Assembly: GCA_965222035.1 (NCBI GenBank)
Contig: OZ244940.1
Coordinates: forward strand, 1,529,537 to 1,593,536
Length of the DNA: 64,000 nucleotides
DNA from: Candidatus Amphirhobacter sp.
GTDB taxonomy: Bacteria > Pseudomonadota > Gammaproteobacteria > Tethybacterales > Tethybacteraceae
Direction: 5' to 3'
In this document: in pieces, positions 991 to 46,346 of the stretch
How positions within the stretch are numbered: position 1 is the first letter of the stretch
How the letters are laid out: each line of letters begins with the position of its first letter
Made by a program: the position numbers and the translations under genes
Notes under the pieces: model-generated
What the model saw: only the letters and a program-made list of their open reading frames with translations
Databases searched by the model: none
Told to the model about the DNA's origin: nothing

Positions 991-1032
991 TTCTTTAGCC
1001 GCCGGAACTCTGGCTGGCAGAGTCAAACGCCA

Positions 1033-1055
1033 CATTGACAACAGCATCGTCAATG
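1033..1055 (+). promoter_or_regulatory. Perfect inverted repeat CATTGAC-N9-GTCAATG 32 nt upstream of the ATPase paralog A1 start; candidate operator
   Basis: Read directly from the sequence. It lies in the ctpA-ATPase intergenic region. Confidence 0.3.
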
Positions 1056-1086
1056 CCAGATACCGCAGCGGGCTTAAAATACAGCC

Positions 1087-2283: not shown

Positions 2284-2327
2284 AGTTAAAGGCATAGTTC
2301 CCCAAACTTAGAATCATCGCTGCACCG

Positions 2328-3245
2328 ATGGCCACCAAGTTGCAGCGCGCCCGCGAGCGGCTGGCGCCCGAGCTGGGCGCCTTCTTGGAAGTACTGCAGC
2401 TCGAGGACGGCCTGGCGCAGGCGACCATCGACAGCTACACCCTCGACCTCGACGGCTTCGCCACCTGGCTTAAGTCCGAGCGCAAGCGGGCGCCGGCGCA
2501 GGCGGGCGCCGACGACATCCTGCGGTATCTGGAAGCGCGCGCGGCGAACGGCGTCAAGGGCAGTACTCAGGCGCGGCTGCTCAGCTGCCTGCGGCGCTTG
2601 TACCGCTATTTGTTGCGCGAGGGCATCATCAGCGCCGATCCGACGGTGCGGGTGCGCAATCCGCTGCAGCTGCAGCGCCTGCCGAAGTCCTTGACCGCCG
2701 CGGAGATCGAGGCTCTGCTGCAACAGCCGAAGGTCAACACGTCGCTGGGCCTGCGCGACCGCGCCATGCTGGAGCTGATGTACGCCAGCGGCCTGCGGGT
2801 GTCGGAACTGACCGCATTGCGACTGGAGCAGCTCGGCCACGACGCCCGCTGCGCGCGATTGATGGGCAAGGGCAGCAAGGAGCGGCTGGTGCCCTACGGC
2901 GAGGAAGCGGCGCGATGGCTGGAAGCATACCTGCGCGACGCGCGCCCGCAATTGCTGCGGGCGCCGGTCGACGCGGTGTTCCTGTCGCGGCGCGGGACCG
3001 GCCTGACCCGGCAGATGTTCTGGGTGATCGTGCGCAAGCATGCCGCGGCCGCCGGCATCACCAAGGCCATCTCTCCGCATGCCCTGCGGCACTCCTTCGC
3101 CACCCATCTGGTCGACCACGGGGCTGACCTGCGCAGCGTCCAGCTGCTGCTGGGGCACAGCAACATCTCGACCACCCAGATCTACGTCCAGGTTGCCAAG
3201 GCGCGCCTGCGGCAACTGCATGCCGAGCACCACCCGCGCGGCTGA
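2328..3245 (+). CDS. xerD: Tyrosine site-specific recombinase XerD
   Basis: 305 aa. It has the XerD N-terminal core-binding region (RLYRYLLREGIISADPT), the catalytic RHSFATHL...LLGHSNISTTQIYV and the Tyr motif. Confidence 0.85.
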   Translation: MATKLQRARERLAPELGAFLEVLQLEDGLAQATIDSYTLDLDGFATWLKSERKRAPAQAGADDILRYLEARAANGVKGSTQARLLSCLRRLYRYLLREGIISADPTVRVRNPLQLQRLPKSLTAAEIEALLQQPKVNTSLGLRDRAMLELMYASGLRVSELTALRLEQLGHDARCARLMGKGSKERLVPYGEEAARWLEAYLRDARPQLLRAPVDAVFLSRRGTGLTRQMFWVIVRKHAAAAGITKAISPHALRHSFATHLVDHGADLRSVQLLLGHSNISTTQIYVQVAKARLRQLHAEHHPRG

Positions 3246-6200: not shown

Positions 6201-6822
6201 GAACGCCGGCTGCCTGGATGCGGTTGCGATCAAGACGCCGGCCGGCTGCATGCTCGCGCCCGGGCCGGAGGCCGCGGTCGCTGCGGGCAATGTCGAGCTG
6301 TCCCAGCTGCTAGCGAGTACCTTGTTGGGCGCTGCGCGGGCTGCGGCAGAATCTCAAGGTACCATGAACAACCTGATCTTCGGCAATGACGGCTTCCAGC
6401 ATTATGAGACCATCTGCGGCGGCGCCGGCGCCGGCCCGGGCCGGCCGGGCGCCGATGCGGTCCACACCCACATGACCAACACCTTGATCACCGATCCTGA
6501 AGTGCTCGAGGAGCGGTGCCCGGTGGTGCTCGAAGAGTTCGCGATCCGCCGCGGCTCCGGCGGCCGCGGCGCGGCGCGCGGCGGCTGCGGGGTGATTCGC
6601 CGCCTGCGCCTGCTCGAGCCGATGGAAGTGATGCTGATCGCGAACAAGCGCCGGGTGCCGCCCTACGGCATGGCGGGTGGCCAGTCTGGCAAGCTGGGCA
6701 GCCAGGCCCTCTATCGCCGGGGCCGGCCGGTAAAGCCGCTGAGTCCGGGACGCTGGCAGGCGCGGGCGGGCGATGTCTTCGAAGTGCGCACGCCGGGCGG
6801 CGGCGGCTGGGGCAAGCCATGA
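3220..6822 (+). CDS. Fused hydantoinase A/B, i.e. N-methylhydantoinase or 5-oxoprolinase (ATP-hydrolysing)
   Basis: N-terminal WRFWIDRGGTFTDVIG (hydantoinase A family) and a C-terminal hydantoinase B-like half, about 1200 aa in total. The start is placed at the in-frame ATG at 3220, which overlaps the xerD 3' end; the longer ORF from 3040 is antisense-noise extension. Confidence 0.8.
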   Translation: MPSTTRAADPAGAAWRFWIDRGGTFTDVIGIDGKGRLHVAKIPSREQAEDAALLGIRELLGLGPQQRLGRKRVAAVRMGTTVATNALLERKGCKLALLITEGFGDVLRIRRQDRPRLFDLFPQPPQPLYKKAVEIKGRLAVDGTELAPLDERAVVRAAKQLARAGYEAAAIVGMHGYAYPAHERRIARLCRDHGLERVFMSHAVEAAQGLVPRGETTVIDAYLTPLLQAHVQRLAQRLPGVDLQFMQSNGGLVAPRGFTGSRALLSGPAGGVVGAAAVAKRHGIKRLVSFDMGGTSTDVAHCQGDLERTADASIDGLAIATPMLRVNTVAAGGGSICSFAAGRLRVGPRSAAADPGPACYGRGGPLTVTDCNLVLGRLDVASFPRVLGRDGRSGIDVDASKKRLRALAQECGYPAKHDERLASECIDVAIENMAKAVKAVSLEQGHDVGRGYALVAFGGAGGQHACQLAERLGIGRVLLHPLAGVLSAAGIGLAALREVRRQAQSVPLAGNLRLLRMRLVKLERAAVRRLRVQGVAAKDIIVARRVLLRYPGSSASIAVPWGTLAAMRRSFAAEHQRLYGLERPALRLQVAAVEIEASGPEGKLPRLRRGRIAPVAERQVSMFINGRRRRAPVYHAEALRPGTRVDGPCLVLESTATTYVAPAWRGRVEADGSLLLQHRPARNRRQHSSASSTAKPNPARLEMFHSIFMSVAEQMGHVLRNTAYSVNIKERLDFSCAVFDAKGDLIANAPHIPVHLGSMGATVKAAIAANPRMRPGDAWLTNAPSAGGTHLPDLTVVTPMFLPRERRPRFFLCSRGHHTDIGGRSPGSMPVDATSLAEEGVVFANFPIVSGGRFAERMFRAALAGHAWPARNPDQNVADLLAQLAANAKGVEELKRACDEQGLREVLAYMGHIKANARQAVADLLPKLRNGRFAVEADSGARIRLNLQVRRRRLLLDFSGTSPQEPSTMNAPPAVTQAAVCYVLRCLVDEDIPLNAGCLDAVAIKTPAGCMLAPGPEAAVAAGNVELSQLLASTLLGAARAAAESQGTMNNLIFGNDGFQHYETICGGAGAGPGRPGADAVHTHMTNTLITDPEVLEERCPVVLEEFAIRRGSGGRGAARGGCGVIRRLRLLEPMEVMLIANKRRVPPYGMAGGQSGKLGSQALYRRGRPVKPLSPGRWQARAGDVFEVRTPGGGGWGKP

Positions 6823-7424
6823 TCGAGATCGTCATCTCCATCGTCGCGGGTTTTGTCTGCGGGATGCTGCCGAGCGCGGTCTTGATGGCGCGTGCGTTCG
6901 GTTTGCCTGATCCGCGCTCGTACGGATCTGGCAATCCCGGCGCGACCAACGTCTCGCGTCAGAACAAATGGGTGGGGAGATTGGTGTTCGTACTCGACTG
7001 CGCCAAGGGCTTGCTGCCCGCGCTAGCGTGCGGGGCACTGCTAGAGTATGAGGGTGCGGCGAGCTTGGCTGCGCTGGCGTCGGTCGCGGCCCACGTCTGG
7101 AATCCGTTGCTGAAGTTCAAGGGCGGACGCGGTGTCGCAACCGGTTTCGGCGGTTTGTTCTCGATCGACTGGCGGCTGGGCCTGCTGGCGGTGGGCATGT
7201 GGCTGACGGTCTACGGCATGGCGCGCATTTCCTCGCTGGCCTCGGTCGGCGCGGTGGTCGCAGCGATGCTGCTGGCGGTCTGGCTGCATCCATTCGGCAG
7301 CCACCCGGCAGTGGCGGCTTCGGGCATAGCGATGATCATTGTCCTGCGACACCGGGACAACTTCAAGAGGCTAAAGGAAGGTACCGAGTCTTCGTTCAAA
7401 GACAAGGGTAAAGACAAGAGCTAG
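6819..7424 (+). CDS. plsY: Glycerol-3-phosphate acyltransferase PlsY
   Basis: MIEIVISIVAGFVCGMLPSAVLMARAFGLPDPRSYGSGNPGATNVSR. Its ATGA overlaps the hydantoinase stop. Confidence 0.9.
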   Translation: MIEIVISIVAGFVCGMLPSAVLMARAFGLPDPRSYGSGNPGATNVSRQNKWVGRLVFVLDCAKGLLPALACGALLEYEGAASLAALASVAAHVWNPLLKFKGGRGVATGFGGLFSIDWRLGLLAVGMWLTVYGMARISSLASVGAVVAAMLLAVWLHPFGSHPAVAASGIAMIIVLRHRDNFKRLKEGTESSFKDKGKDKS

Positions 7425-7486
7425 GCTCTGCAGACTAGATGAAGAAGATTTCGAAAAATGGTAAGATAGGCATGGGAGAGAAAAAC

Positions 7487-7972
7487 ATGAAAATCACCAA
7501 GTTTCTGGGAATCTGTGTAGTCCTTCTTGCTGGAGGGCTACTGTTCCCGAGCGCTGAAGCTCAATGGACGAGCGCTGGGAAACTCTTATCAAAGCTAGGC
7601 GAGCGGGGAAGTAAAAGCGCCTGGAATCTTCGCAAGAAAGTCCCTCGCCAAACTGAATCTCCTGGTGGATCTGGCTACTGGTCAGAAGGTCTTTCTCCCG
7701 AAGAAATTCATGGTGCAGCGTCTGGATTGAGGATAGGGGGTAGTCTTCTCTATAGGCACAACCGGGGCTGCACGGATGAAAACTCTACATCTCCTGAATG
7801 TGATCCCAATCGTGTTGAAAGAACACCTATCGTGCGTACAAATCCTCCGTACTCCGGACGCAGGTTGTGGACGCCGCAAGAGCGTCTAAAGCGTAGGCTT
7901 GGGAATAGCCGTAGCGATATTCAATTAAGGCCGAATAGATTGTGGAGACCGCCCAAGGCGCCGCAAAAGTAG
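7487..7972 (+). CDS. Hypothetical small secreted basic protein in a low-GC islet
   Basis: Signal peptide MKITKFLGICVVLLAGGLLFPSAEAQ. A 160-aa ORF in AT-rich DNA (about 48% GC against about 67% background), so it is unlikely to be a chance ORF. It is R/P/S-rich. Confidence 0.45.
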   Translation: MKITKFLGICVVLLAGGLLFPSAEAQWTSAGKLLSKLGERGSKSAWNLRKKVPRQTESPGGSGYWSEGLSPEEIHGAASGLRIGGSLLYRHNRGCTDENSTSPECDPNRVERTPIVRTNPPYSGRRLWTPQERLKRRLGNSRSDIQLRPNRLWRPPKAPQK

Positions 7973-8009
7973 CGTCTCCGGATAGTTTTAGGAATCATCC
8001 CTTGCGACT

Positions 8010-8204
8010 TCAGGTTTTCCAGCAGGCGTAGAGAATCAACGCAAAGGGTAGCCCGACCAGCGTCCACCCCAGAATCGGCGTGATGAACCATCCGTTCGCT
8101 AAGGATACTAAGAACAGGGTGATCAAAACAGGGAAGCCCATGTAGAGCCAGAAAGCTCTCCAGGCGAAAAGACGCCCAGAACTCATGCGCTTACGCTTTG
8201 TCAT
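8010..8204 (-). CDS. Possible small 2-TM membrane protein
   Basis: The 64-aa ORF has two hydrophobic helices (FWLYMGFPVLITLFLVSL; ILGWTLVGLPFALILYACW) and sits in the same low-GC islet. Confidence 0.25.
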   Translation of the reverse strand: MTKRKRMSSGRLFAWRAFWLYMGFPVLITLFLVSLANGWFITPILGWTLVGLPFALILYACWKT

Positions 8205-8223
8205 CCTATAAAATAAATGAGAA

Positions 8224-9090
8224 TTAAAGCCGAGCGGCCTGCGGCCGCTCGAGGCGGCGCAGCAGCAGAGTCGCCGGGTAGCAGATTGCCAGGTACATAG
8301 CAGCGACCAGCAGCAGGGTCTCGAACAGTCGCCCGGTGGTGGTAGCTACCTCGATGCCGGAGAAGGTGAGCTCCTGGACCGAGATTACGGAGATGATCGA
8401 GGAGTCCTTGACCAGCGAGATTAGCTGGTTGGTGTACGGCGGGATGATTTTGCGGAAGGCCTGCGGCAGGATCACCAGCCGCATCGCCGGCCAGCGGCGC
8501 AGCCCGAGGGCCGCTGAAGCTTCCCACTGGCCCTTGCCGATCGACTGGATGCCGCCGCGGAAGATCTCAGCGACGTAGGCCGCTTCGTACAGCGCGATGG
8601 TGAGCAGTCCGGCGAGCAGGTTCTCGATGAGATCGGCCGGGCCGAACATCCAGGTCAGTGTCGTGCTGCCCTCGACGGCGTCGCCGATGGCTGAGACCAG
8701 CGACGGCGGCAGCACCTGGGTACTGACGAAGAAATAAATCACGAAGATAAACACTAGCGGCGGCATGTTGCGGATGCCCTCGACGTAAGAGTTGCCCAGC
8801 ATGCGCAGCGCCATGATGCGGCTTGAGCTCAGCAGCGCGACCGCCAGGCCGAACAGCGTGCAGGCGACGCCGCCCCACAGCGCCAGGCGTAAGGTCATGA
8901 GAAAGCCCTCGAGCAGCAGGCCCGGGGCCCAGCCGTCCTCGGTGAAGCGGATCATGTACGACAGCGGCTGCTTAAAACTCCAGTTGTATTCGAAGTCGCC
9001 CAGCGTCGCGGCTCCCAGCCACCACAGCCCGCCGACGAACAGCACCGCGAAGAAGATGTTGAGGGCGAGGTCGCGGTGCTTTCCGTTCAC
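8224..9090 (-). CDS. Polar amino-acid ABC transporter permease (His/Gln/Glu-type)
   Basis: Permease signature EAAxALG-like (EASAALGLRRWPAMRLVILPQA). The start is taken as a GTG with a GGAGGA SD, overlapping the upstream permease stop (GTGA). Confidence 0.75.
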   Translation of the reverse strand: MNGKHRDLALNIFFAVLFVGGLWWLGAATLGDFEYNWSFKQPLSYMIRFTEDGWAPGLLLEGFLMTLRLALWGGVACTLFGLAVALLSSSRIMALRMLGNSYVEGIRNMPPLVFIFVIYFFVSTQVLPPSLVSAIGDAVEGSTTLTWMFGPADLIENLLAGLLTIALYEAAYVAEIFRGGIQSIGKGQWEASAALGLRRWPAMRLVILPQAFRKIIPPYTNQLISLVKDSSIISVISVQELTFSGIEVATTTGRLFETLLLVAAMYLAICYPATLLLRRLERPQAARL

Positions 9091-9977
9091 AGCCGTCCTC
9101 CGTTCATGCGCTGCAGCAGCCGCGCTTCCCACAGGCGGATTGCTATTGACAGGCTGAAGCACAGTACTATATAGATAACCGCGACGGTGAGCCAGATCTC
9201 GAACGTCAGGTAAGTGTCGGCGATGAGGTTGCGCGCGATGTCGGTGAGCTCGGGCAGGGCGACGACCGAGACGATGGAGGAGTGCTTGATCAGGGCCACG
9301 AACAGATTCGCGAGCGCCGGCAGGATCAACGGCAGGCTTTGCGGCAGGTAGATCAGGCGGAAGGCCGCCAGCGGCCGCAGGCCCAAGCCGGCGGCGGCAT
9401 CACGCTGCCCGCGGGGGATGGCGTCGATGCCGGCGCGGAAGATCTCGGCCGCGAAGGCCCCTTCGAACAGCGCCAGCGCCAGGATCCCGGCGGTGGTGCG
9501 GTCGAGGTCAAGTAGGTTCGCGAGCATGAAATACAGCAGGTACAGCTGCACCAATAGCGGCGTGTTGCGCGCGAGCTCGATGTAGGAGCGGGAGAACACC
9601 CGCAATGCGACCAGCCGGCTTTTCTCCATCAGCGCGATGACCAGGCCGATGACGGCCGCCAGCGGCGCGCTGCACAGCGCGAGGATTACGGTCAGGCGCA
9701 GGCCGGCCGCCAGCGGCCCCCAGGTCCATTCGTCGCCGCGATAGCCGGGCAGCAGCAGCCGCGGGATGCGGTACCACTGCCAGTTGTAGCTGATGTTGGA
9801 GGCGCCGTACCAGATGCCGCCGATGACGGCGGCCAACGCCAGGAACGCGCCCAGCCGAGAGAGAAGACGTTTTTGTGGAGGAGAGTGCATGGGCGCCGCG
9901 TCGTTGTTCCTGCGGTTTAGAGGAAGCAGGAAGGGAAGGCGAGGACGGCCGCGGGAATCATTGTTTGCGAGGCGCAA
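9087..9977 (-). CDS. Polar amino-acid ABC transporter permease
   Basis: Multi-TM protein with the ABC permease loop (DAAAGLGLRPLAAFRLIYLPQS). Confidence 0.8.
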   Translation of the reverse strand: MRLANNDSRGRPRLPFLLPLNRRNNDAAPMHSPPQKRLLSRLGAFLALAAVIGGIWYGASNISYNWQWYRIPRLLLPGYRGDEWTWGPLAAGLRLTVILALCSAPLAAVIGLVIALMEKSRLVALRVFSRSYIELARNTPLLVQLYLLYFMLANLLDLDRTTAGILALALFEGAFAAEIFRAGIDAIPRGQRDAAAGLGLRPLAAFRLIYLPQSLPLILPALANLFVALIKHSSIVSVVALPELTDIARNLIADTYLTFEIWLTVAVIYIVLCFSLSIAIRLWEARLLQRMNGGRL

Positions 9978-10105
9978 TCGAGCGACGGAGAGCGCTCCGA
10001 ATTATCCCCATTAATTATATGTTGTTGCCAGTGTTGCAGGGTATCATGTTAGAATTTTTCGCCACGCAGGCCACCCAGCCTAATCCCCCGCAAGGTTACG
10101 CCTTT

Positions 10106-10945
10106 ATGATCAAGACTGCCAAGTCCCTTCTCTTATCTGCAGCCGCGCTCGTCGCGTCCAGCACCGCCATCGCCGACGGCCACTCGGACTCGGTGATCGA
10201 GAAAATCCTCCGCGAGGGCGAGATCCGCGTCGGCATGAGCACCTTCGTGCCCTGGGTCATGCGCAGCAAGGACGGCGAGTACATCGGCTTTGAGGTCGAT
10301 GTCGCCCGCGAGGTCGCCAAGGACATGGGCGTCGAGCTCGTCATCGTCCCCACCCAGTGGGATGGCATCATCCCGGCGCTGCTCGCCGGCAAGTTCGACG
10401 TCATCATCGGCGGCATGTCAATCACGCCCGAGCGCAACCTCAAGGTCAACTTCAGCACCCCCTACGCCCAGTCCGGCCTGCTGATCGTCGCCAACCGCAA
10501 AGAGATCGAGGACATCACCGGCAACGATGAGGACGAGCTGGAATTCGCGGACTTCGACGACGAGGATGTCGTCTTCGCGATGCGCCGCGGCGTGACCGCG
10601 ATCGACGCGGTCAAAGAGCAGTTTCCCGAGGCCGGTACCCGCCTGTTCGATGAGGAAGCGACCGCCATCCAGGAAGTCGTCAACGGCAACGCCACCGCCT
10701 GGGTGTCCGCCTCGCCGAGCGCGGCGGTCGCCGTCAGCGACCACGGCAGCAAGCTGTTCCTGCCCTTTATCGAGACCTTCGACAACAGCAACGAGGGCTT
10801 CGCGCTGCGCAAGGGCGATCCCGACGCGCTCAATTTCTTCAACAACTGGATCTTGACCAAGCACGAGAGCGGCTGGCTCGAAGAGCGCCACACCTATTGG
10901 TTCAAGACCCGCGACTGGGCCGGGATGGTGGCCCAAGACCAGTAA
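10106..10945 (+). CDS. Periplasmic amino-acid-binding protein (ABC substrate-binding protein, family 3)
   Basis: Signal peptide MIKTAKSLLLSAAALVASSTAIA and family-3 SBP core motifs. It is divergent from the permeases. The ORF-track start at 9875 is an upstream noise extension. Confidence 0.75.
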   Translation: MIKTAKSLLLSAAALVASSTAIADGHSDSVIEKILREGEIRVGMSTFVPWVMRSKDGEYIGFEVDVAREVAKDMGVELVIVPTQWDGIIPALLAGKFDVIIGGMSITPERNLKVNFSTPYAQSGLLIVANRKEIEDITGNDEDELEFADFDDEDVVFAMRRGVTAIDAVKEQFPEAGTRLFDEEATAIQEVVNGNATAWVSASPSAAVAVSDHGSKLFLPFIETFDNSNEGFALRKGDPDALNFFNNWILTKHESGWLEERHTYWFKTRDWAGMVAQDQ

Positions 10946-10951
10946 AGCAAA

Positions 10952-11386
10952 ATGCCGGTCCCCTACGGCGCCATGCGCTGGGCGGACCGCCTAGGTCGTC
11001 AGCATAAGAGGGCGGTTTCCCGCTGGCTGCGCGGCAGTGGCCGCAAGAGGCCGACCGGCAAGCCGCTCGATCCCGAGGAGAGCCGCAAGGTCTATCGGCA
11101 GGTTAACGGCGGGCTCCCTGGGCATTGGGAGGTGCGGTCGTTCTCAGGGGGCGACTACTGCTACAGCAAGGAAGAGGGCGGCTACGAGATTAATCTCTAC
11201 GTCAATGCCACGGGCCAGAAATACAATACCTGGGAGATCGGGGACATCGACTTCGTGCGGCTGGACACTGGCGAGGTCATCCATTCCTATGTACCCGAGG
11301 AGCGGCATGATGTCCAAGCCGCGCAGGCCGAGGCCTGGGGGCATCTGCGGGAATGCCTGGCCCTGCTCAAGGAACAGCAGCCCTAG
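10952..11386 (+). CDS. Hypothetical protein
   Basis: A 144-aa ORF with normal GC and no recognisable motif. The start is uncertain. Confidence 0.35.
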   Translation: MPVPYGAMRWADRLGRQHKRAVSRWLRGSGRKRPTGKPLDPEESRKVYRQVNGGLPGHWEVRSFSGGDYCYSKEEGGYEINLYVNATGQKYNTWEIGDIDFVRLDTGEVIHSYVPEERHDVQAAQAEAWGHLRECLALLKEQQP

Positions 11387-11428
11387 GCTGGCTGCGACAG
11401 CCTTCTTAAATCCAAGCAGCGTACTGGA

Positions 11429-14248: not shown

Positions 14249-14325
14249 TGGTTGCGGGGACAGGATTTGAACCTGCGACCTCCAGGTTATGAGCCTGGTG
14301 AGCTACCGGGCTGCTCCACCCCGCA
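14249..14325 (-). tRNA. tRNA-Met (anticodon CAU), initiator-like
   Basis: Hand-folded cloverleaf of 77 nt with encoded CCA. It has a 7-bp acceptor stem, D-stem GAGC/GCUC with A11:U24 (an initiator hallmark), anticodon loop CUCAUAA and T-loop UUCAAAU. Position 1:72 is U:A rather than the C x A mismatch. Confidence 0.85.
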
Positions 14326-14376: not shown

Positions 14377-15195
14377 TCAGTCGAAATCAGGGGCCCAGGG
14401 GACCAGGTTCTTGTCGACGATGCGGTGATTCGCGGCCGTCAGGGCGGTAATCGCCTCCATCTCGGCGGCGCTCAGCTCGAAGTCGTCGATGGCGTAATTG
14501 GCCTCAATGTGCGCGGGCGTACCGGCCTTGGCGATGGCGAAGACCCCCTGCTGCATGATCCAGCGCAGGGCGGTTTGCGCCGCGCTCTTGCCGTGCCGTG
14601 CCCCGATCTCGGCGAGCACCGGCTGCTCGAGCACGGCGCCGCGCGCCACCGCGCAGTAGGCCGCCAGCGGGATGCCGAGCTCGCGGGCGCCGGCGAGCAG
14701 CCGGGTCTGGTCGAGCAGCGGATGGAACTCCACCTGGTTGACGTCGATGGGCGCGGCGGCCGAGGCGGCGGCGGTCTGCAGCATGGCGACGGTGTAGTTG
14801 GAGACGCCGACGTGCGCGGCGAGGCCCCGCGCCCGGGCCTCGGCGAGGAGCTCCAGCGACGGCCCGACCTCGCCGTCGCCCGGCGGCCAGTGCAGCAGAA
14901 GCAGGTCGACCTTGGCGGTGCGCAGCAAGCGCAGGCTCTCTTCGACCGAGGGCATGAAGTCGCGCTCGTTCATGCGGTCGGGCTTGACCTTAGTGGTGAC
15001 GCAGAACTCGGCGCGCGGGATCCCGCAGGACTCGAGCACCTTGCCGAGCTCGGCCTCGTTGCCGTACATCTGCGCGATGTCGAAGGAGCGGTAGCCGACC
15101 TCGATGGCCGCCGCGAACGCCCGCTCGGCGTCGGCGCCGTTGAGGCCGAAGGTCCCGAAGACCCGGCTGAACTCAGGGCGTGCGAGGATGCTCAT
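14377..15195 (-). CDS. Aldo/keto reductase (DkgA-like 2,5-diketo-D-gluconate reductase family)
   Basis: AKR motifs: IEVGYRSFDIAQMYGNE, catalytic Tyr/Lys context, and LLLHWPP. Its start overlaps the stop of the upstream HNH paralog (ATGA). Confidence 0.85.
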   Translation of the reverse strand: MSILARPEFSRVFGTFGLNGADAERAFAAAIEVGYRSFDIAQMYGNEAELGKVLESCGIPRAEFCVTTKVKPDRMNERDFMPSVEESLRLLRTAKVDLLLLHWPPGDGEVGPSLELLAEARARGLAAHVGVSNYTVAMLQTAAASAAAPIDVNQVEFHPLLDQTRLLAGARELGIPLAAYCAVARGAVLEQPVLAEIGARHGKSAAQTALRWIMQQGVFAIAKAGTPAHIEANYAIDDFELSAAEMEAITALTAANHRIVDKNLVPWAPDFD

Positions 15196-16352
15196 GGCTC
15201 GCGCCAGTAGTCGAAGCCCTGCTGCTTGGCGAGGGCCAGCTGCGCCTTGATGGTGTTCTCATATGCATTGGCCAAGCTGTCTTGCTTCTTCAAGTCATTC
15301 AGGTCGGCGTTGAGGCCGACGATGTAATCGTCGACCAGCTTATTCCAGCCGCTCTTTTGCTCCGGATTTTCCCGGAAAAACCGCAGCAGCTTGAAGTGCT
15401 GTTCTGCCAGTTCGCCGATCTGGCTGGCTGCCGGCAGCATGTTGCTCTTGGAGCTGTTGCATTTGGGACTGGCGGGAATCAGGTTCCACATCTGATCGTG
15501 CCCGACCCAGCTCCAAGGCAGGAAATGGTCAAGGTCGTATTGCTTGCTGTTGATCTGATCCGGGCAGTACAAACAGCGCAGCTTGCTTGCCCGCAGGTAG
15601 ATTTTCCAAAACTCCCGCTGCTGTGTCAGGCTGGTGCGCGCATCGACGGGCGGCACCCACAGTTTGTTCTGCAAGAAGGGCACGTTGGGATTGCGCCCGG
15701 CGAGAAAACGCAGCCACAGGTTGTCGAGCCAGCCGTTGATGATCTGTCCGTTGCTGATGAAGTATTCGCGCCAGCGCGGGTTGACGATGATCCTGCCGTC
15801 CTGCCGGGGCGGCTTGTCAATCATGTACAGGGGCGGATTGTCCTGGTCATGAAAGCACTTGGCGCTGAGCTTGGCAATGAGCTTGTAGCGCCTGCCTTCA
15901 TCCAACCCGGTCGGGATGAGGTCCTCGAACCATGGCTGTAGCATGACGGGGATGGGATGGCGCGTCAGCTTCCTGACCTTAGGCAATTTGGCAAGCTTCT
16001 CTTTGGCGGCCTCGAAGCCGCTGCGCGCCTTATCGATGCTGTCGAAGGCGGCGCTGTCGATGATGCCTTGCTTGTCTGCGAGGTTCAGGCTGTCCTCGAT
16101 CATGTCCTGGAGGCCGAAGTGCAGCCGGAAGTGCCGGACCGGAAAACATGAGAGGATGAGCATCTCCCGCCGGATTGTGTCGAAGTCGATTGCCAACTCT
16201 TCCTTGCCGGCGTGGAGCGCTACCTGCTGCAGGATGATCTTGAACAGCAGGAACTTGTAGGAAGAGGTCGCATGCTCGAGGGCATCGATGAGGCAGTCGA
16301 CCTTGACCTGCGCGCTCGGCGGCGGCGCGGTCTGCATGGGCGGGGCGCTCAT
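15192..16352 (-). CDS. HNH (DUF1524-like His-Me finger) nuclease-domain protein, paralog 1 of 3
   Basis: C-terminal [45 protein letters not shown] matches the DH..P.S / WNL / N..K.N HNH pattern. The N-terminal domain, with conserved SYKFLLFKIIL, is unknown. Confidence 0.6.
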   Translation of the reverse strand: MSAPPMQTAPPPSAQVKVDCLIDALEHATSSYKFLLFKIILQQVALHAGKEELAIDFDTIRREMLILSCFPVRHFRLHFGLQDMIEDSLNLADKQGIIDSAAFDSIDKARSGFEAAKEKLAKLPKVRKLTRHPIPVMLQPWFEDLIPTGLDEGRRYKLIAKLSAKCFHDQDNPPLYMIDKPPRQDGRIIVNPRWREYFISNGQIINGWLDNLWLRFLAGRNPNVPFLQNKLWVPPVDARTSLTQQREFWKIYLRASKLRCLYCPDQINSKQYDLDHFLPWSWVGHDQMWNLIPASPKCNSSKSNMLPAASQIGELAEQHFKLLRFFRENPEQKSGWNKLVDDYIVGLNADLNDLKKQDSLANAYENTIKAQLALAKQQGFDYWREP

Positions 16353-17503
16353 CGGCGCTGCTTCCAGTCCTCGAAGCCCTGCCGCCTGGCGAGGGCCAGC
16401 TGTGCCTTGATGGTGCTGTCGTACGCGTTGGCGAGATTGTCTTTCTTGAGCAGGTCGTTGAAATCAGTACTCAGACCCACCACGTAATCATCGACCCATC
16501 GTTGCCAGACGTTTTCCGACAGCTGCTCGTTGGTGAAAGTCAAGAACTTCAGGTGCATGTCTACCAGCGCGTTGATGCGCTCGGCGCTCGGCAGCAGGTT
16601 GTTCTTGCTGCTGTTGATGTTGGGGTTGGCGGGCACCAGGTTCCATAGTTGATCATGCCCGATCCAGGTCCAGGGCAGGAAATGATCGAGATGGTAGTGC
16701 CGATTGTCCAGAACCTGATTCGAATACAGGCAGCATAGCTTGTTGTCTTCCATGTAATAGCGCCAGTATTTGCGCTGCCGCGCCAGCGAGCGGCGGTCGG
16801 GCAGTTCCCACAGCTTGTTCGACAGCGAAGGGACATTGGGATTGCAGTTGGCCAGGTAACGCAGCCACTGGCTGTCCAGCCAGCCGTTGATGATCTGCTG
16901 GTTGTCCTCGAAGTAGGTACGCCAGCGATGGTGCACGACGATGCGTTGCTGTTCCGCGTCAATCCGGTACAAGGGCGGGTTCTTGGTGTCGGCGAAGCAC
17001 TCGTTGCTGAGCTCGGTGATGAGTCTGTAGGCTTTGTTGTGCACCATGCCTTTGGTGTGTTCCCTGTACCACGGATTGATCATGACATAGAGAGGATGAT
17101 GGGTCAGGTTTTTGACCTGGACCAGCTCGGCGACGCGGTCAGCGACCTTGGCGAAGCTGCGCCGCACCTGGTCGGTGTTGGTGAAAGCCTCGCTGGCGAT
17201 GAGTCCTAGTTTGCGCTTGTCGGTCAGGTCCTGCAGCACCGAGCCGATCATGTCCGAGGTGCCGAAGTGCAGCCGGAAATGCCTGATCGGGAACCAGGAG
17301 AGGATGAGCATCTCGCGCCGGATGGCGTCGAAGCTGATGGCGATCTCCTCGGCGCCGGCCTGTTTCTCCACCCGCTGCAGGATGATCTTGAGCAGCAGGA
17401 ATTTGTAGGAGGCGTTGGCGCGTTCGAGAGACTGGGCCAGGCAGTTGACATCGACCTGCCCGCTCAGAGGCAGGCCGGCGGCTGACGGCGGCGGATTCTT
17501 CAT
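16349..17503 (-). CDS. HNH nuclease-domain protein, paralog 2 of 3
   Basis: Same architecture (SYKFLLLKIIL ... HLDHFLPWTWIGHDQLWNLVPANPNINSSKNN). It has a 4-nt overlap with its neighbours. Confidence 0.6.
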   Translation of the reverse strand: MKNPPPSAAGLPLSGQVDVNCLAQSLERANASYKFLLLKIILQRVEKQAGAEEIAISFDAIRREMLILSWFPIRHFRLHFGTSDMIGSVLQDLTDKRKLGLIASEAFTNTDQVRRSFAKVADRVAELVQVKNLTHHPLYVMINPWYREHTKGMVHNKAYRLITELSNECFADTKNPPLYRIDAEQQRIVVHHRWRTYFEDNQQIINGWLDSQWLRYLANCNPNVPSLSNKLWELPDRRSLARQRKYWRYYMEDNKLCCLYSNQVLDNRHYHLDHFLPWTWIGHDQLWNLVPANPNINSSKNNLLPSAERINALVDMHLKFLTFTNEQLSENVWQRWVDDYVVGLSTDFNDLLKKDNLANAYDSTIKAQLALARRQGFEDWKQRR

Positions 17504-18624
17504 GCTTTGCGTTTCCAGTCGCTGAAACCCTGGCGCTGCGCTAGTTTCAACATCGGCTCAACGGTACCGGCGTAAGCAGCGCGCATGAGGCGTAGGTTTT
17601 GCAGCTCAGCGTCGGTGGCGCGCAGACCAAGGCGATAGTCGTCGAGGATCTTTTTCAATTCGCGTGGCTTGGTCTCTCGGACAATCGCCAGCGCCTGATA
17701 ATGGGCGTCGGCGAGTTTGCCAATCAGTTTCGCAGGCGGCAGACGATCGTTCTTGTCGCTGTTGAGACCCTTTGCGGTGGGAATAAGATTCCATGCTTGG
17801 TTGTGTCCCACCCAGGACCAAGGCAGGAAATGATCCAGCGCGTAGGGCGCGGCAATAGGGTCGCCGGAGTAGATGCAGGCCATCGGTCTGTGTTTGAGGT
17901 AGATGTCCCAGTACCGATGCTGAAGGTTGAGGTCTTTGCGTTGCCGTGGCCGGTCCCATAGCTTGGCTGACAAGGATGGGACGTTAGGGTTCCTGCTCTC
18001 GAGAAAACGCAGCCATTGGCTGTCGAGCCAGCCTTCGACGATGGTCATGTGCTTGTTGAGGTAAGCCAGCCAAGACGGATGGATGACGATGCGGTCCGCT
18101 GGCAGTTCCAGCTTGTACAACGGCCGGCGCTCGTTGAAATGCTCCGTACTGAGCTCGGCTACCTGCTGGCGAGGTTCTTTCATGTGCCCTAATTCCGGAA
18201 ACCATCTTCTGATCATGACGAAGAGGGGGAATTTCGCCAACTGATGAATCCGCGGCATGCGATCGAGCCGGTCAGCATGCCGGTCCAGAATGCTGCGCAT
18301 CTTGTCGGCGGTGACGCGCGTGGCGTCGTCCAGGAGCCCGACTTGCTCCAGATTGCGAAACATCTCAGCTGTCTTGTCCTCTTGGCCGAGCGCCAGCTTG
18401 AAATGCCGGCTCGGAAACCAAGCTTGCGCGAGCATCGCGCGGCTCAGCGCCTTGCTGTCAATTGCTAGCTCGCGAGCTCCGGGATGTTTCTTGATTTCCT
18501 GCAGAATGGTGCGCAGCAGCAGGAATTTGTAAGATGAGGTGAAGGACTTGAAAGCCTCAATCAGCGGCTCGACATCAATATCGGTGTCGGGCGGCAGATT
18601 GGCCGGCGGCAAGCCTTGCTTCAT
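17500..18624 (-). CDS. HNH nuclease-domain protein, paralog 3 of 3
   Basis: Same architecture ([11 protein letters not shown] ... [32 protein letters not shown]). Confidence 0.6.
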
Positions 18625-18704
18625 GCCGGCTGGGCCGGCGCCCGGGCGGTTTGCGGGCTGGAAAACATATAATTACCTTCGCTGATTCTACTAGGCATCC
18701 AGCC

Positions 18705-19730
18705 ATGCGTATCGACAACGAAGTCAAGCTTGATTACGACGACGTCCTGATCAGGCCCAAGAGGTCCACCCTCGACAGCCGCGCCACCGTCGACCTCGAG
18801 CGCGATTTCGGTTTCTTCAAGGGCGTGCCGATCATCGCCTCGAACATGGACACCACCGGGACCATCCCCATGGCCGAGGCGCTCGCGGCGCACCGCATGC
18901 TCACCTGCCTGCACAAGCACCACGAGGTCAAGGACCTGATTGAGTTCTTCGCGGAGGAGCGCGCCCACGCCGCCTACAGTACCGGCATCAGCAGCAAGGA
19001 CTGGGACCGCTGGCAGGAGGTCTCCAGCCAGGTCAAGGCCGGCAACATCCGCATCGTGTGCATCGACGTCGCCAACGGCTACTCGGAGCAGTTCATCCAC
19101 TTCGTCGAGCGCTTCCGCAAGGAGCACAAGGACCTGACCATCATCGCCGGCAACGTGGTGACCGGCGACATCACCGAGCAGCTGATCCTCGCCGGCGCCG
19201 ACATCGTCAAGGTCGGCATTGGCCCCGGCAGCGTGTGTACCACCCGGCTCAAGACCGGCGTTGGCTACCCGCAGCTGAGCGCCGTGATCGAATGCGGCGA
19301 CGCCGCCCACGGCCTCGGCGGGCGCATCATCGCCGACGGCGGCTGCGCGCGGACCGGCGACGTGGTCAAGGCCTTCGGCGCCAACGCCGACTTCGTCATG
19401 CTCGGCGGCATGCTCGCCGGCCACGCCGAGAGCGGCGGCGACCTGACCGAGGAGGACGGCAAGCAGTACAAGGAGTTCTACGGCATGTCGTCGGAGCATG
19501 CCAACGAGATCTACAGCGGCGGCCTCAAGGACTACAAGGCGGCCGAGGGCCGCAAGGTGCGCATTCCCTACCGGGGCAAGGTCGAGGTTACCGTCCAGGA
19601 CATCCTCGGCGGGCTGCGCTCCGCATGCACTTATGTCGGCGCCCGCGAGCTGCGTGAGTTGCCCAAATGCACGACCTTCGTGCGCGTCAACAGCACGCAC
19701 AACCGCGTGTTCGAAGATCTCGAAATCTGA
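18705..19730 (+). CDS. guaC: GMP reductase
   Basis: [23 protein letters not shown], an IMPDH/GMPR barrel ([11 protein letters not shown]) and about 341 aa. The ORF-track start at 18651 is an upstream extension. Confidence 0.9.
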
Positions 19731-20283
19731 GGCCCTGACGGACGCCACCGGCCGCGACGGCCGCCTGCTGGCGGTCTGCGTCGGCATGCCCGCGGAGCTG
19801 CCCGGCTTCGGCGAGTGCTCGGGCATCGTCAAGAGCCCGACGGAAGAACGCGTCGTCCTGGGCCCGCGCGGCCTGGCCGGCGACGGCGTCGCCGACTCGG
19901 AAAACCACGGCCGGCCCGAGCAGGCGGTCTACGCGCTCGGCGACCGCGACCGCGACTACTGGCAGGAGCAGCTGCAGCGCGATTTGCCGCCAGGGACCTT
20001 CGGCGAGAACCTCGTCATCTCCAACATGGACACCCATGACGTGCAGATCGGCGAGCGCCTGGTGCTGCCGGACGCGGTGCTCGAGGCGGTGTGGCCGCGC
20101 ATCCCGTGCTCGAAGCTCACCCACGTCATCGGCGACCCGCGCTTCGGCAAGCGCTTCCTGCGCTCGGGCCATGTCGGCGTGTATTTCCGCGTCATCACCG
20201 CCGGCTCACTCGCCGTCGGCGACGCGACCCGCTGGGACAGAGCCCATGCGGACGGCCGCGCGATCCTCGAGCTCGCGACCTGA
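19717..20283 (+). CDS. MOSC-domain protein (YiiM-like)
   Basis: [15 protein letters not shown] ... [11 protein letters not shown] ... [18 protein letters not shown] is a MOSC beta-barrel pattern. The start codon is uncertain: there is no clean ATG between the guaC stop and the domain. Confidence 0.55.
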
Positions 20284-20284
20284 C

Positions 20285-20740
20285 CTAAGCGCCGCGCAGC
20301 TCGCGGCTGTCGAGCTGCATGGTAACCGGCCCCTGGTTGTGCAGATGCACGTCCATGTCGGCTCCGAACACCCCCTGCTTGACCGTCAGGCCCTCTTGCT
20401 CCAGGTTGGCCGCGAAGCGCGAGAGCAGCTGCTGCGCCTGCTCTGGCGGGGCCGCGCGCGCGAAAGACGGACGGTTGCCGCGGCGTGCGTCGGCCGCCAG
20501 GGTGAACTGGCTCACCAGCAGGATCGCGCCGCCGGCCTCGCCCACCGCGCGGTTCATCTTGCCGGCGTCGTCAGCGAAGATGCGAAGCCGCGCCACCTTG
20601 GCCGCCAGCAGGTCCGCGTCTTTCTCATCGTCGCCCTCCACGACACACAGCAGTACTAGAAGGCCCGCCTCGATGCCGGCGACTTCCTTGCCGGCCACCG
20701 CCACCCGGGCGCTCGCCACCCGCTGCAGCAGGGCCAGCAC
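20285..20740 (-). CDS. dtd: D-aminoacyl-tRNA deacylase
   Basis: LVSQFTLAADARRGNRPSF ... NQGPVTMQLD, 151 aa. Confidence 0.9.
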   Translation of the reverse strand: MLALLQRVASARVAVAGKEVAGIEAGLLVLLCVVEGDDEKDADLLAAKVARLRIFADDAGKMNRAVGEAGGAILLVSQFTLAADARRGNRPSFARAAPPEQAQQLLSRFAANLEQEGLTVKQGVFGADMDVHLHNQGPVTMQLDSRELRGA

Positions 20741-20741
20741 C

Positions 20742-21206
20742 TCAGCTGTCGCAGTCCTGCCGTTGCAGCAGGCGCTCCTCTTCGAGCTCGAGGCGCTCGC
20801 CGGCGAAGCGCAGGCGCCACTGCGTGTACTGGCAGCGGTCGCGGCCGTCCCAGGCCTCGATGATGACGCCGTTGTGGATGATGTCGCCGCCGAGGCGATA
20901 GCCCAGCGCCGCCGCGATCAAACGATTGCGCAGCCGCACCACGATCGAAGCCGGCGAGGCGATCACCAGGCCCTGCTCGTCCGCGCTCGGGGCCGCCGTG
21001 GCCGAGCGCACTTCCAGCACCAGCGGCCCGAAGCGCTCCTTGCTCACCACCGGGCCCGCGGGCTCGTAGCCGCGCAGCTGCTCGTGGTCGATCAGCAGGG
21101 CGATGTCGGTCCCGGCCGTGCCGTCCGGCACCGCGGACCAGGCGGTATCCTGCGCGCTAGCCGCCCCGCTTAGCAGCGCCAGGGCCAGCAGGCCTAGGGA
21201 TCGCAC
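20742..21206 (-). CDS. Small secreted hypothetical protein (Cys-pair), distant paralog of the 21194..21717 gene
   Basis: The start is taken as a GTG giving signal peptide VRSLGLLALALLSGAASAQ. It shares the pattern GY...N..I...W.G...C....W with its upstream neighbour. Confidence 0.45.
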   Translation of the reverse strand: MRSLGLLALALLSGAASAQDTAWSAVPDGTAGTDIALLIDHEQLRGYEPAGPVVSKERFGPLVLEVRSATAAPSADEQGLVIASPASIVVRLRNRLIAAALGYRLGGDIIHNGVIIEAWDGRDRCQYTQWRLRFAGERLELEEERLLQRQDCDS

Positions 21207-38476: not shown

Positions 38477-38496
38477 GCTGGAAACGGACCCTTCGC

Positions 38497-40050: not shown

Positions 40051-40069
40051 GCTGGAACGGCGCTCGCGC

Positions 40070-41623: not shown

Positions 41624-41627
41624 GCTG

Positions 41628-43184: not shown

Positions 43185-43203
43185 GCTGGAGGTTGTGCCA
43201 CGC

Positions 43204-44757: not shown

Positions 44758-44775
44758 GCTGGAGGTTGTGCCACG

Positions 44776-46326: not shown

Positions 46327-46346
46327 GCTGGGGACGGCGCCCGCGC

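Follow-up and report, generated by a model that had tools for sequence, protein, structure and literature searches.

Between guaC and a tRNA-Met gene, three overlapping genes encode diverged HNH proteins, which raises the question of what such a trio does and whether it arrived by recent insertion. We analysed the locus within a 64-kb window (the whole stretch of DNA under study), together with relatives and homologs. With a probability of about one-half, we consider the genes a co-expressed paralog array of stand-alone modification-sensing, probably phosphorothioate-sensing, restriction nucleases from an unnamed family of ~370-aa proteins (~900 clusters at 50% identity).

Gene layout and age of the array

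The features of the locus were as follows (window positions).

14249..14325, minus strand: tRNA-Met(CAT), initiator-like (ARAGORN; Rfam, 67 bits)
14377..15195, minus strand: DkgB-like aldo/keto reductase (AKR; Pfam Aldo_ket_red, E 7e-48)
15192..16352, minus strand: paralog H1, 386 aa, AKR-proximal, the modelled copy (HNH_4, E 3.4e-12)
15429..15626, minus strand: H1 HNH_4 nuclease core (aa 243-308; Pfam)
15957..16319, minus strand: H1 predicted winged-helix reader domain, N-terminal (aa 12-132)
16349..17503, minus strand: paralog H2, 384 aa, middle gene (HNH_4, E 1.8e-8)
17500..18624, minus strand: paralog H3, 374 aa, the operon's first gene and most diverged copy (HNH_4, E 9e-9)
18625..18704, no strand: divergent intergenic region between guaC and the HNH operon, with an AT-rich core inside

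The three open reading frames of the first-pass annotation, with their coordinates, were reproduced by ORF calls, as were the 4-nt overlaps (H3/H2, H2/H1, and the ATGA of H1/AKR), by which all four genes look like the single transcription unit that it had proposed. Inside this unit, no promoter or terminator signal rose above chance. In the intergenic region, a sigma-70 consensus scan was not significant; the AT-rich core GGTAATTATATGTTT (18663-18677, minus strand) is kept in the window, in L095 and in the distant L002, with differing bases around it, and is the likely promoter element. Apart from the paralog copies (period, ~1150 nt; 64-77% nucleotide identity), the region has no direct repeats.

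The AKR is probably co-transcribed with the array but not a functional component of it. It matches NCBIfam DkgB (E 4e-62, under the equivalog cutoff), is 75% identical to its L002 ortholog, as for housekeeping genes, and is host-like in composition (GC, 0.70; GC3, 0.94). An AKR next to family genes elsewhere was seen once, equal to chance expectation, so the earlier inclusion of this gene in the system is not supported.

A low-GC islet (55% against 67%) abutting the tRNA, a possible integration site lacking an integrase, had also been described. The GC is indeed lower, at ~58% against ~68%, in the three HNH genes only (GC, 0.575-0.589; GC3, 0.71-0.83; host-like flanks, GC 0.65-0.71), which leaves the AKR outside the islet, separating the low-GC genes from the tRNA. 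The initiator-like tRNA-Met is real and no integrase is present at the locus. Nonetheless, AqS2-like relatives with only 75-85% identity in housekeeping proteins share the order guaC - HNH array - AKR - tRNA-Met - ndk, and the tRNA-Met lies between AKR and ndk in L001 and L002 too; a second copy of its 3' end is absent from the window. On these grounds, both the tRNA-Met as an island boundary and, with the AKR host-like and no att repeat, a recent tRNA-targeted insertion were rejected. The array is old and its genomic position fixed.

All three copies are under purifying selection. Against a 96%-identical relative, dN/dS was 0.104 (H3), 0.077 (H2) and 0.098 (H1), similar to neighbouring genes, and because these values are ~0.1, H1, H2 and H3 are all taken to be functional. 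Their full-length identity is 42-54%, with pairwise values of 53-54% for H1 vs H2 and 40-42% for H3 vs H1 and H2, the reader and C-terminal parts being the most diverged regions; the motifs SYKFLL, NPNVP, LDHFLPW..GH..WNL and N-S-x-K, recognised as shared in the first pass, are invariant across the trio. The equivalent locus in relatives holds 2-3 copies, the paralog types being alpha, gamma and gamma' in the window, alpha, beta and gamma in L002, and beta and gamma in L001. The ortholog of H3 is L2_Ha, the guaC-proximal copy of L002 (51% identical). Between relatives, HNH orthologs are 50-54% identical and neighbouring genes 72-85%, and at larger distances both dN and dS of the HNH genes are ~3-fold above those of their neighbours.

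Nuclease core and reader domain

HNH_4 (PF13395, Cas9-type) scored above the Pfam gathering threshold in H1, H2 and H3 and in 83/83 family members, so profile searches bear out the HNH motif that had been called from the letters, beside an unknown N-terminal domain. The DUF1524/GmrSD assignment made at the same time was not upheld: DUF1524/GmrSD_C matched 0/3 window proteins and, weakly, only 2/83 family members. The H1 catalytic residues are D275-H276...N290...N299-K302, all five named residues being invariant or near-invariant in columns over 83 sequences, and the catalytic sites of all three window copies are complete. The H1 core has no CxxC zinc site and matches the Gme HNH and Cas9 HNH. 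H1, H2 and H3 presumably cleave DNA.

H1 was modelled with AlphaFold2 (pLDDT, 94.5; pTM, 0.91). Each of the three proteins has five predicted parts, namely a winged-helix reader, a helical winged-helix-like domain, an N-P-N-V-P linker, HNH_4 and a C-terminal three-helix domain; in another protein (P0092), three reader modules are fused to one HNH. Near-invariant residues of the H1 reader are S31-Y32-K33, where helix 2 begins, and F70-P71 (W-Y-P in the family consensus). Among solved structures, the reader is matched best by the sulfur-binding domain (SBD) found in type IV restriction enzymes that depend on phosphorothioate, and the structural alignments with SBDs are also the longest (112-122 residues; ORC/Cdc6, 89-106). 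Foldseek, suggested as a check in the first pass, recovered the HNH and nothing significant outside it. Profile-profile comparison detected no sequence relationship of the reader to canonical SBDs (hhalign probability, 0.3%) or to SspB, and the N-terminal profile matched no PDB sequence. Outside HNH families, Pfam matched no family member anywhere, so that none was placed in PF26340, the family of canonical SBDs; in the library searched, a confirmed canonical SBD protein also lacked a PF26340 match.

Genomic contexts and competing explanations

Homologs are mostly single-copy per genome, yet they are genes of defence islands or plasmids (21 plasmids; phage records, 1/50,697) and not housekeeping genes. 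Multi-copy arrays elsewhere comprise three copies plus an internally deleted remnant (L016/L017) and two copies (L006). Neighbours of homologs include Mrr-nSTAND, GmrSD, Eco47II R-M, AspBHI, BREX, type I R-M with SIR2, and toxin-antitoxin pairs; the R-M, GmrSD, BREX, Mrr-STAND and Ssp contexts agree with the restriction or defence role that the first-pass annotation had raised. XRE-type HTH regulators are recurrently fused or adjacent to family genes.

The dominant conserved neighbour, abutting the family gene at 24/87 loci, is a small SAM MTase, a HIT protein or an MTase-HIT fusion. Its MTase part matches TIGR04096, 'DNA phosphorothioation-associated putative methyltransferase' (E 1e-15 to 1e-18), and is homologous to the full-length dnd-associated MTases of pSYSM and NIES-970; the abutting MTases are 156-215 aa and TehB-like or Methyltransf_25-like, or HIT fusions, and none matched a DNA-MTase family. 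HIT enzymes turn (d)NMP-phosphorothioates into (d)NMP + H2S (PMC8775712). SspA/DndA, SspB or SspC was found within ~3 kb of a family gene at 8 unrelated loci (raw count; PADLOC E down to 1e-215). The pSYSM cluster reads SspB - SspC' - HNH - SspA, that of L092 reads SspB - HNH - HIT - FtsK/HerA, and in Leptolyngbya SspA lies 108 nt downstream of the HNH gene. Several neighbouring ssp genes are shortened (half an SspC on pSYSM, SspC remnants at L077, SspB stubs at L088 and L093), so that partnership and antagonism are both compatible with these clusters. At ~70% of loci, the window's included, there is no MTase, HIT or Ssp neighbour.

With homologs in anti-virus islands and near DNA-sulfur genes, the trio most likely represents restriction-type defence nucleases and not a recent insertion. 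Because partners of the Ssp, Dnd, methyltransferase or HIT kind are absent from the 64-kb window, a type IV (modification-dependent) mode of action is proposed, with modified rather than unmodified DNA presumably the one cut. The reader would dock on DNA in which the backbone or a base is marked, the likeliest mark being a phosphorothioate within a given sequence context, as the family's structural matches and neighbours suggest; the HNH domain, probably dimeric, would then nick or cut close by, and incoming phage or plasmid DNA would be restricted. The three diverged copies may read different targets or form mixed oligomers.

Less probably, family members are Ssp-coupled effectors, analogues of SspE, SspFGH or DndI, for which phosphorothioate on the host chromosome is either a self tag, with invading DNA that lacks it being attacked, or an activating signal; if so, another part of the symbiont's genome encodes sspBCD or dndBCDE. 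The 8 loci with a family gene within or abutting ssp genes fit this, as do the ~85% of sspBCD modules without a known restriction partner or effector (PMC8092258) and the Tyr-containing hydrophobic patches by which known effectors, too, sense phosphorothioate (PMC11662687). However, the window lacks Ssp and Dnd homologs, the majority of members are solitary, as type IV enzymes typically are, no member was seen beside a complete sspBCD operon, and the truncated or fragmented adjacent ssp genes fit antagonism at least equally well. A comparably low likelihood attaches to reader-HNH restriction nucleases without a phosphorothioate link, in which the reader would detect a modified base (6mA or 5mC derivatives, for example) or plain sequence, the MTase/HIT pair would be an R-M-like protection or regulatory module, and Ssp neighbours would reflect defence-island clustering. 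The abutting MTases are specifically closest to the dnd-associated family, SspA/B/C, TIGR04096-like MTase and canonical SBD-HNH neighbours recur independently across phyla, and SBDs align longest to the reader, all of which argue against this explanation; it draws on the missing SBD sequence homology (hhalign), documented 6mA-reading winged-helix-HNH fusions (PMC11037411), one context with a Dcm-type DNA MTase, HATPase and response regulator, and the mixing of unrelated systems in defence islands.

Since most genomes hold a single copy, homo-oligomers must be functional; copy number (2 or 3) and paralog types vary among related genomes, and every window copy has a complete catalytic site. It is thus rather doubtful that a single hetero-oligomeric nuclease requires each paralog as an obligate subunit, and that they are not separate enzymes with their own specificities, even though the 4-nt overlaps suggest that the genes are translationally coupled and co-expressed in stoichiometric amounts, EcoWI (PMC7461809) and McrA (PMC6182155) are dimeric HNH restriction enzymes, purifying selection retains all three copies, and array types alpha, beta and gamma are found throughout the lineage. 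HNH endonucleases of the homing type that are selfish or mobile, or a decaying islet gained by horizontal transfer and without host benefit, would accord with the lower GC and GC3, the raised dN and dS, the L016/L017 remnant and a LAGLIDADG gene adjoining the pSYSM member. Such an origin is highly improbable given the fixed position across relatives, dN/dS of ~0.1 with active sites intact in every copy, the near absence of the family from phages, and the absence of any intron, intein, integrase, transposase or att repeat at the locus.

Comparison with known systems

The first pass recognised no matching system, and no catalogued one matches, PADLOC yielding weak HNH-core matches only. The SBD-HNH type IV enzymes (ScoMcrA, SprMcrA, EcoWI and their relatives) resemble the preferred reading of the family in joining an N-terminal mark reader to a C-terminal HNH (~300-560 aa) and in being usually solitary within defence islands; in L018, the family member is followed, 67 nt downstream, by a canonical SBD-HNH gene. 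The two motifs most conserved in the family's reader, [S]-Y-K at the helix start and then [Y/F]-P, may also parallel the HK...YP sulfur-pocket signature of SBDs (PMC7461809), although the two motifs are 38 residues apart in the family and 48-50 in SBDs. No sequence homology between the two groups was found by Pfam, phmmer or hhalign. The SBD-HNH nuclease is a zinc-finger HNH or HNH_2, whereas that of the family is a cysteine-poor HNH_4 (Cas9-type); the family has an additional middle domain, NPNVP linker and C-terminal helical domain, and its frequent coupling to a small MTase and/or HIT is unreported for SBD-HNH enzymes.

SspE, DndI (DUF262-DUF1524), SspFGH and DndFGH lie beside ssp or dnd modification genes, as some family members do, and have a hydrophobic patch by which phosphorothioate is sensed (PMC11662687); SspE and DndI share the His-Me finger nuclease superfamily. 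In contrast, the family has neither a DUF262/ParB-like NTPase domain nor DUF1524, none of the PADLOC models for Ssp or Dnd effectors matches it, and ssp and dnd genes are absent from the vicinity of most members, the window's included. Cas9/IscB HNH, Septu PtuB and the PADLOC candidate PDC-M01B are, like the family, HNH_4 by sequence with a D-H...N...N catalytic pattern, but the similarity covers only the ~60-aa core (10-26 bits against cutoffs of 100-375), and the RuvC domain, ATPase partner (PtuA) and guide RNA of Cas9/IscB and Septu have no counterpart. HhiV4I and HtuIII, winged-helix fusion type IV enzymes, likewise combine a winged-helix reader with HNH in a defence role (PMC11037411), with no sequence relationship to the family detected; they read Dam-type 6mA and rarely have MTase neighbours, whereas the contexts of the family point to phosphorothioate systems.

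Locus, composition and age of the nuclease array

Three tandem HNH nuclease paralogs (H1, H2, and H3), an aldo/keto reductase gene (AKR), and a tRNA gene lie together on the minus strand of the window.

Genes of the array and its tRNA side (window positions)
14249-14325, minus strand, tRNA-Met(CAT) gene
14377-15195, minus strand, DkgB-like aldo/keto reductase (AKR), overlapping H1 through ATGA
15192-16352, minus strand, H1, ORF of 386 aa
16349-17503, minus strand, H2, ORF of 384 aa
17500-18624, minus strand, H3, ORF of 374 aa

The three tandem ORFs described in the first-pass annotation were borne out, with consecutive overlaps of 4 nt each and the ATGA overlap between H1 and AKR, and the motifs listed there are invariant across the three proteins (full-length identity, 42 to 54%). 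Direct repeats of the region are the HNH gene copies and no others. A scan of the region gave no promoter or terminator signal above chance inside the operon, and an Rfam scan matched the tRNA and nothing else. The intergenic segment between guaC and the HNH operon has an AT-rich core, GGTAATTATATGTTT (18663-18677, minus strand), which is kept in the window, in metagenome contig L095, and in the distant contig L002, with different flanking bases; it is likely a shared promoter or operator element.

The annotation had also described a low-GC islet beside the tRNA, which was upheld for the three nuclease genes (GC, 0.575 to 0.589; GC3, 0.71 to 0.83) and failed for AKR, which is host-like (GC, 0.70; GC3, 0.94; neighboring genes, GC 0.65 to 0.71) and separates the block from the tRNA. 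Because the drop in GC is confined to the nuclease genes, the low-GC block excludes AKR and does not touch the tRNA. AKR was considered as a functional partner and rejected; its adjacency to a family gene elsewhere (n = 1, L007) was estimated to be within chance expectation.

The locus order (guaC, HNH array, AKR, tRNA-Met, ndk, rlmN, ispG) is kept in the sponge-symbiont metagenome-assembled genome (MAG) “Betaproteobacteria bacterium AqS2,” with two HNH copies, and in three metagenome contigs with three copies each (L002, L095, and L097). Relative to the window, the HNH copies are 96% identical in L095 and about 80% identical in L097. In comparisons with loci L001 and L002, identity was 72 to 85% for housekeeping proteins, 75% for AKR, and just 50 to 54% for HNH orthologs. 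The lineage holds at least three paralog types, and the subsets retained differ between genomes.

Paralog types of the lineage
alpha, guaC-proximal, members H3 and L2_Ha
beta, about 400 aa, missing from the window
gamma, AKR-proximal, members H1, H2, L1_Hb, and L2_Hc

Against its closest relative, each paralog had a dN/dS of 0.08 to 0.10, similar to neighboring genes; in more distant comparisons, HNH dN and dS were both about three times those of the neighbors, with dN/dS near 0.2. Pervasive positive selection was rejected at the gene-wide level, where dN/dS (0.08 to 0.21) gave no sign of it. Given the conserved locus, the low dN/dS, and the raised dN and dS, H1, H2, and H3 are old, positionally fixed, functional, and fast-diverging genes. 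The tRNA-targeted island that the first-pass annotation had proposed was set aside: the window has no integrase ORF, the tRNA 3′ end is present in it once with no second copy found as an att repeat, the locus is conserved in relatives, and the host-like AKR stands between the tRNA and the low-GC genes. What looked like a tRNA-linked island is better described as a long-maintained defense array, inherited vertically in a sponge-symbiont-related lineage.

Multi-copy arrays, whose recurrence the annotation had posed as a check, have also arisen by local expansion in other lineages (L016/L017 and L006). One 12.1-kb contig of an uncultured gammaproteobacterium (L016/L017) carries, within 12 kb, three full-length copies and one internally deleted remnant that keeps its N-terminal and C-terminal ends only; the contig has no synteny to the window locus, and its copies make up an independent cluster that shows signs of turnover. 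Locus L006 has two family copies.

Elsewhere in the window (33769-49504, minus strand) are ten tandem co-oriented paralogs of 516 to 552 aa (69 to 92% mutual identity; GC, 0.57 to 0.61, also below the genome background). The two scanned of the ten match Glyco_transf_22 (PF03901; Alg9-like GT-C mannosyltransferase), and downstream are an ORF of 432 aa, unrelated to them, and a PmbA/TldD gene. This Glyco_transf_22-type expansion is far larger than that of the HNH genes and also more recent. In L095, about 2 kb beyond ispG (16623-21161), an N6/N4 DNA methyltransferase (833 aa) and a ResIII/DEAD helicase (more than 1,085 aa) form a type III-like restriction-modification (R-M) pair; the corresponding part of the window (about 1-11400) holds ABC-transporter permeases, PlsY, and oxoprolinase. 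The pair is a strain-variable defense insertion.

Nuclease, reader domain and family

All three proteins match PF13395 (HNH_4, Cas9-type; 46.6, 34.6, and 35.6 bits; cutoff, 22), as do 83 of the 83 aligned members of the family of reader-plus-HNH proteins to which they belong. The catalytic D-H...N...N pattern sits on a beta-beta-alpha fold, as HNH_4 membership demands; D275-H276, N290, N299, and K302 are invariant or near-invariant across the 83 members and are retained in H1, H2, and H3. The DUF1524/GmrSD_C (PF07510) assignment proposed earlier was not sustained: the window proteins had no match at an E value of ≤1, and 2 of the 83 members matched weakly (best E value, 9.5e-4). The accompanying statement that the genes fit no recognized system held, PADLOC matches being weak and confined to the HNH core of PDC-M01B, PtuB, and Cas9. 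NCBIfam gave sub-threshold matches to the Cas9/IscB HNH and nothing else; among sequences of solved structure, the Gme HNH nickase and the HNH domains of Cas9 came closest.

The family comprised 91 clusters at 90% identity in a word-indexed search and 918 clusters at 50% identity in an exhaustive profile search (E value, ≤1e-30). Nearly all proteins are 355 to 395 aa long, and those with a name in databases bear that of “HNH endonuclease domain-containing protein.” Beyond the HNH families, no Pfam model matched any of the 83 members. Members occur in many phyla, with many matches from sponge-associated MAGs, on 21 plasmids (including pSYSM of Synechocystis PCC 6803), and in 1 of 50,697 phage records. 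Judged by record titles, host-associated MAGs account for much of the set of genomic matches L019 to L094; many of these MAGs are apparently sponge-associated, and they include many Candidatus Latescibacterota, plus Aestuariivita, Gemmatimonadota, and AqS2. Among variant architectures, the 795-aa metagenomic protein P0092 has three tandem reader modules (about 210 aa each, all with S-Y/H-K) ahead of a single HNH and C-terminal domain, and is a fused counterpart of a multi-reader array. Five proteins (P0109, P0122, P0165, P0072, and P0079) carry a C-terminal Peptidase S24 (LexA/UmuD-like) domain, which suggests that in some lineages the nuclease is controlled by autoproteolysis or through a RecA link; another variant has an N-terminal XRE-type HTH.

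Confident AlphaFold2 models of H1 (pLDDT, 94.5; pTM, 0.91) and of the distant member P0046 (93.1 and 0.90) share an N-terminal winged helix (about aa 12 to 132), a helical second domain that includes a beta-hairpin, the NPNVP linker, the beta-beta-alpha HNH, and a C-terminal three-helix domain. The best-conserved reader residues are S31-Y32-K33, which open helix 2, and [Y/F]70-P71, 38 residues on. In the sulfur-binding domain (SBD) of phosphorothioate-dependent type IV enzymes, HK/HR (HK on helix A2) and YP contact the sulfur; the published signature is H-K/R-P-z-z-L-L and then Y-P-F-x-L, with an HK...YP spacing of 48 to 50 residues (PMC7461809 for HK...YP). The resemblance of Y32-K33 plus [Y/F]70-P71 to this pocket, judged from the residues themselves, is suggestive but unproven.

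Profile comparisons gave no link. With hhalign, the family reader scored a probability of 0.3% against a three-sequence canonical SBD profile (ScoMcrA, the L018 neighbor, and the protein P0234) and 0.3% against SspB; an N-terminal reader profile found nothing among PDB sequences at an E value of ≤10, and Foldseek found nothing significant in the PDB beyond HNH. P0234 bears the precomputed label PF26340, which we take to be the ScoMcrA-type SBD family; none of the 83 members drew a PF26340 match from the Pfam copy searched, which may not include that model: a confirmed canonical SBD drew no such match there either. Divergence between the window paralogs is greatest in their reader and C-terminal parts (34 to 55% identity), and the NPNVP linker (57 to 65%) and HNH (45 to 53%) are better conserved, a distribution that fits diversified target reading.

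Defense and phosphorothioation genes beside homologs

Outside the lineage, homologs sit in defense islands with Mrr-nSTAND, GmrSD, Eco47II R-M, AspBHI, BREX, type I R-M with SIR2, toxin-antitoxin pairs, and HEC-01 (a PADLOC candidate of AAA ATPase plus DUF4276). On a Nostoc plasmid (L100, 6169-7904), the HEC-01 pair immediately follows the family gene, and on pSYSM (L101, 17995-19736) it lies 2.8 kb away. Downstream of the family gene in L011 (6001-11633) come a Dcm-type DNA methylase, a HATPase_c_3 protein, and a response regulator, a set similar in gene content to the recently described “Ambrosia” defense system (MTase, HATPase, REC, and type IV HNH).

The dominant conserved neighbor is a methyltransferase (MTase) and/or a HIT protein (24 of 87 non-redundant loci), nearly always in the same orientation and abutting or overlapping the family gene.

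Forms of the dominant neighbor
small class-I SAM methyltransferase, 156 to 215 aa
standalone HIT protein, 124 to 138 aa
MTase-HIT fusion, about 290 aa

The MTase part of the fusions matched TIGR04096 ([quoted passage not shown]) with E values of 1e-15 to 1e-18, partially and under the family cutoff, and the abutting MTases are homologous to the 690-aa full-length dnd-associated MTases of pSYSM and the NIES-970 plasmid. The (d)NMP-phosphorothioates are substrates of HIT enzymes, which turn them into (d)NMP and H2S (PMC8775712).

Genes of the Ssp phosphorothioate modification system (SspA, SspB, or SspC) lie within about 3 kb of a family gene in 8 of about 94 loci. The pSYSM cluster (L101, 17.8 to 30.2 kb) reads SspB (E value, 2e-119), SspC N-terminal half (5e-215), LAGLIDADG gene, family gene, two toxin-antitoxin pairs, SspA/DndA (1e-139), HEC-01, and dnd-associated MTase. 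SspB is within about 1 kb of the family gene in L077 and L092, the latter ordered SspB, family gene, HIT, and FtsK/HerA ATPase; SspA is 0.1 to 1.2 kb away in Leptolyngbya, NIES-970, and L045. From the rarity of ssp genes, we infer that this Ssp, MTase, and HIT adjacency is above chance. Neighboring ssp genes are often incomplete: L077 has three small SspC-like remnants (3936-4852), and SspB stubs of 83 to 106 aa adjoin the family gene in L088 (2410-2730) and L093 (181-432). These could reflect conflict between nuclease and phosphorothioate modification or an assembly or annotation artifact.

Locus L018 also holds a true SBD-HNH gene, which starts 67 nt downstream of its family gene. The neighbors in L006, L018, and L074 were considered as three canonical SBD-HNH genes, and alignment placed an SBD in L018 alone; those of L006 and L074 have HNH_2 in common with it and different readers.

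Proposed function and relation to known systems

Modification-dependent restriction enzymes come mainly from reader-nuclease fusions, and H1, H2, and H3 are most likely stand-alone modification-sensing restriction nucleases. In the AlphaFold2 architecture, each joins a reader to a nuclease, as in type IV enzymes, with no cognate MTase; within the window, neither the operon nor its flanks contain one. Phosphorothioate DNA is the best-supported target, on three independent lines: a ranking of folds that is suggestive of an SBD, the MTase (dnd-type) and HIT partners, and the Ssp genes nearby. The enzymes might cut phosphorothioate DNA, as ScoMcrA does, or might treat phosphorothioate as a self mark, as in SspE/DndI. 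The family shows no homology to the Ssp/Dnd effectors SspE, SspFGH, DndFGH, and DndI, whose PADLOC models gave no match. No SspA, SspB, SspC, or dnd-MTase homolog lies within the 64-kb window, which favors the type IV reading here; at other loci, the truncated ssp neighbors fit antagonism as well as partnership.

In a bolder reading, given a probability of roughly one in four, the family would be an unrecognized class of restriction nuclease that reads phosphorothioate through a sulfur-binding winged helix of highly diverged sequence, and with its MTase-HIT accessory it would form a new module. In such a phosphorothioate-linked defense module, the nuclease would act with an accessory related to dnd-associated MTases, whose HIT part could desulfurate phosphorothioate nucleotides. 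Known effectors accompany only some 15% of sspBCD modules (PMC8092258); the module might supply the missing effector for some of the roughly 85% without a partner or be a weapon dedicated to countering invaders with phosphorothioate-modified DNA. In the sponge-symbiont lineage, the paralogs would have diversified in target reading, the three or more long-lived types each serving its own phosphorothioate sequence context; mixed oligomers of paralogs are possible.

The main interest is this family-level phosphorothioate link, rather than the triplication itself: the family has an unclassified reader and is repeatedly coupled to Ssp genes and to a small methyltransferase and/or HIT hydrolase. Should the reader bind phosphorothioate, it would be a second sulfur-reading scaffold, sequence-unrelated to the SBD, the nuclease would be a candidate effector or antagonist for many orphan Ssp modules, and HIT desulfuration chemistry would be tied to DNA phosphorothioate biology. 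Phosphorothioate-specific readers already serve to map and capture phosphorothioate DNA and RNA, and the pSYSM member makes the question testable in a model organism, Synechocystis PCC 6803.

Literature searches on the reader-HNH architecture, an HNH plus HIT plus MTase system, and TIGR04096 found no description of the family, within incomplete coverage that makes an earlier description possible. By sequence, the family fails the tests for SBD, DUF1524, Ssp/Dnd effectors, and all PADLOC systems and is a member of HNH_4 only; by its proposed function, it would be similar to the SBD-HNH type IV enzymes.
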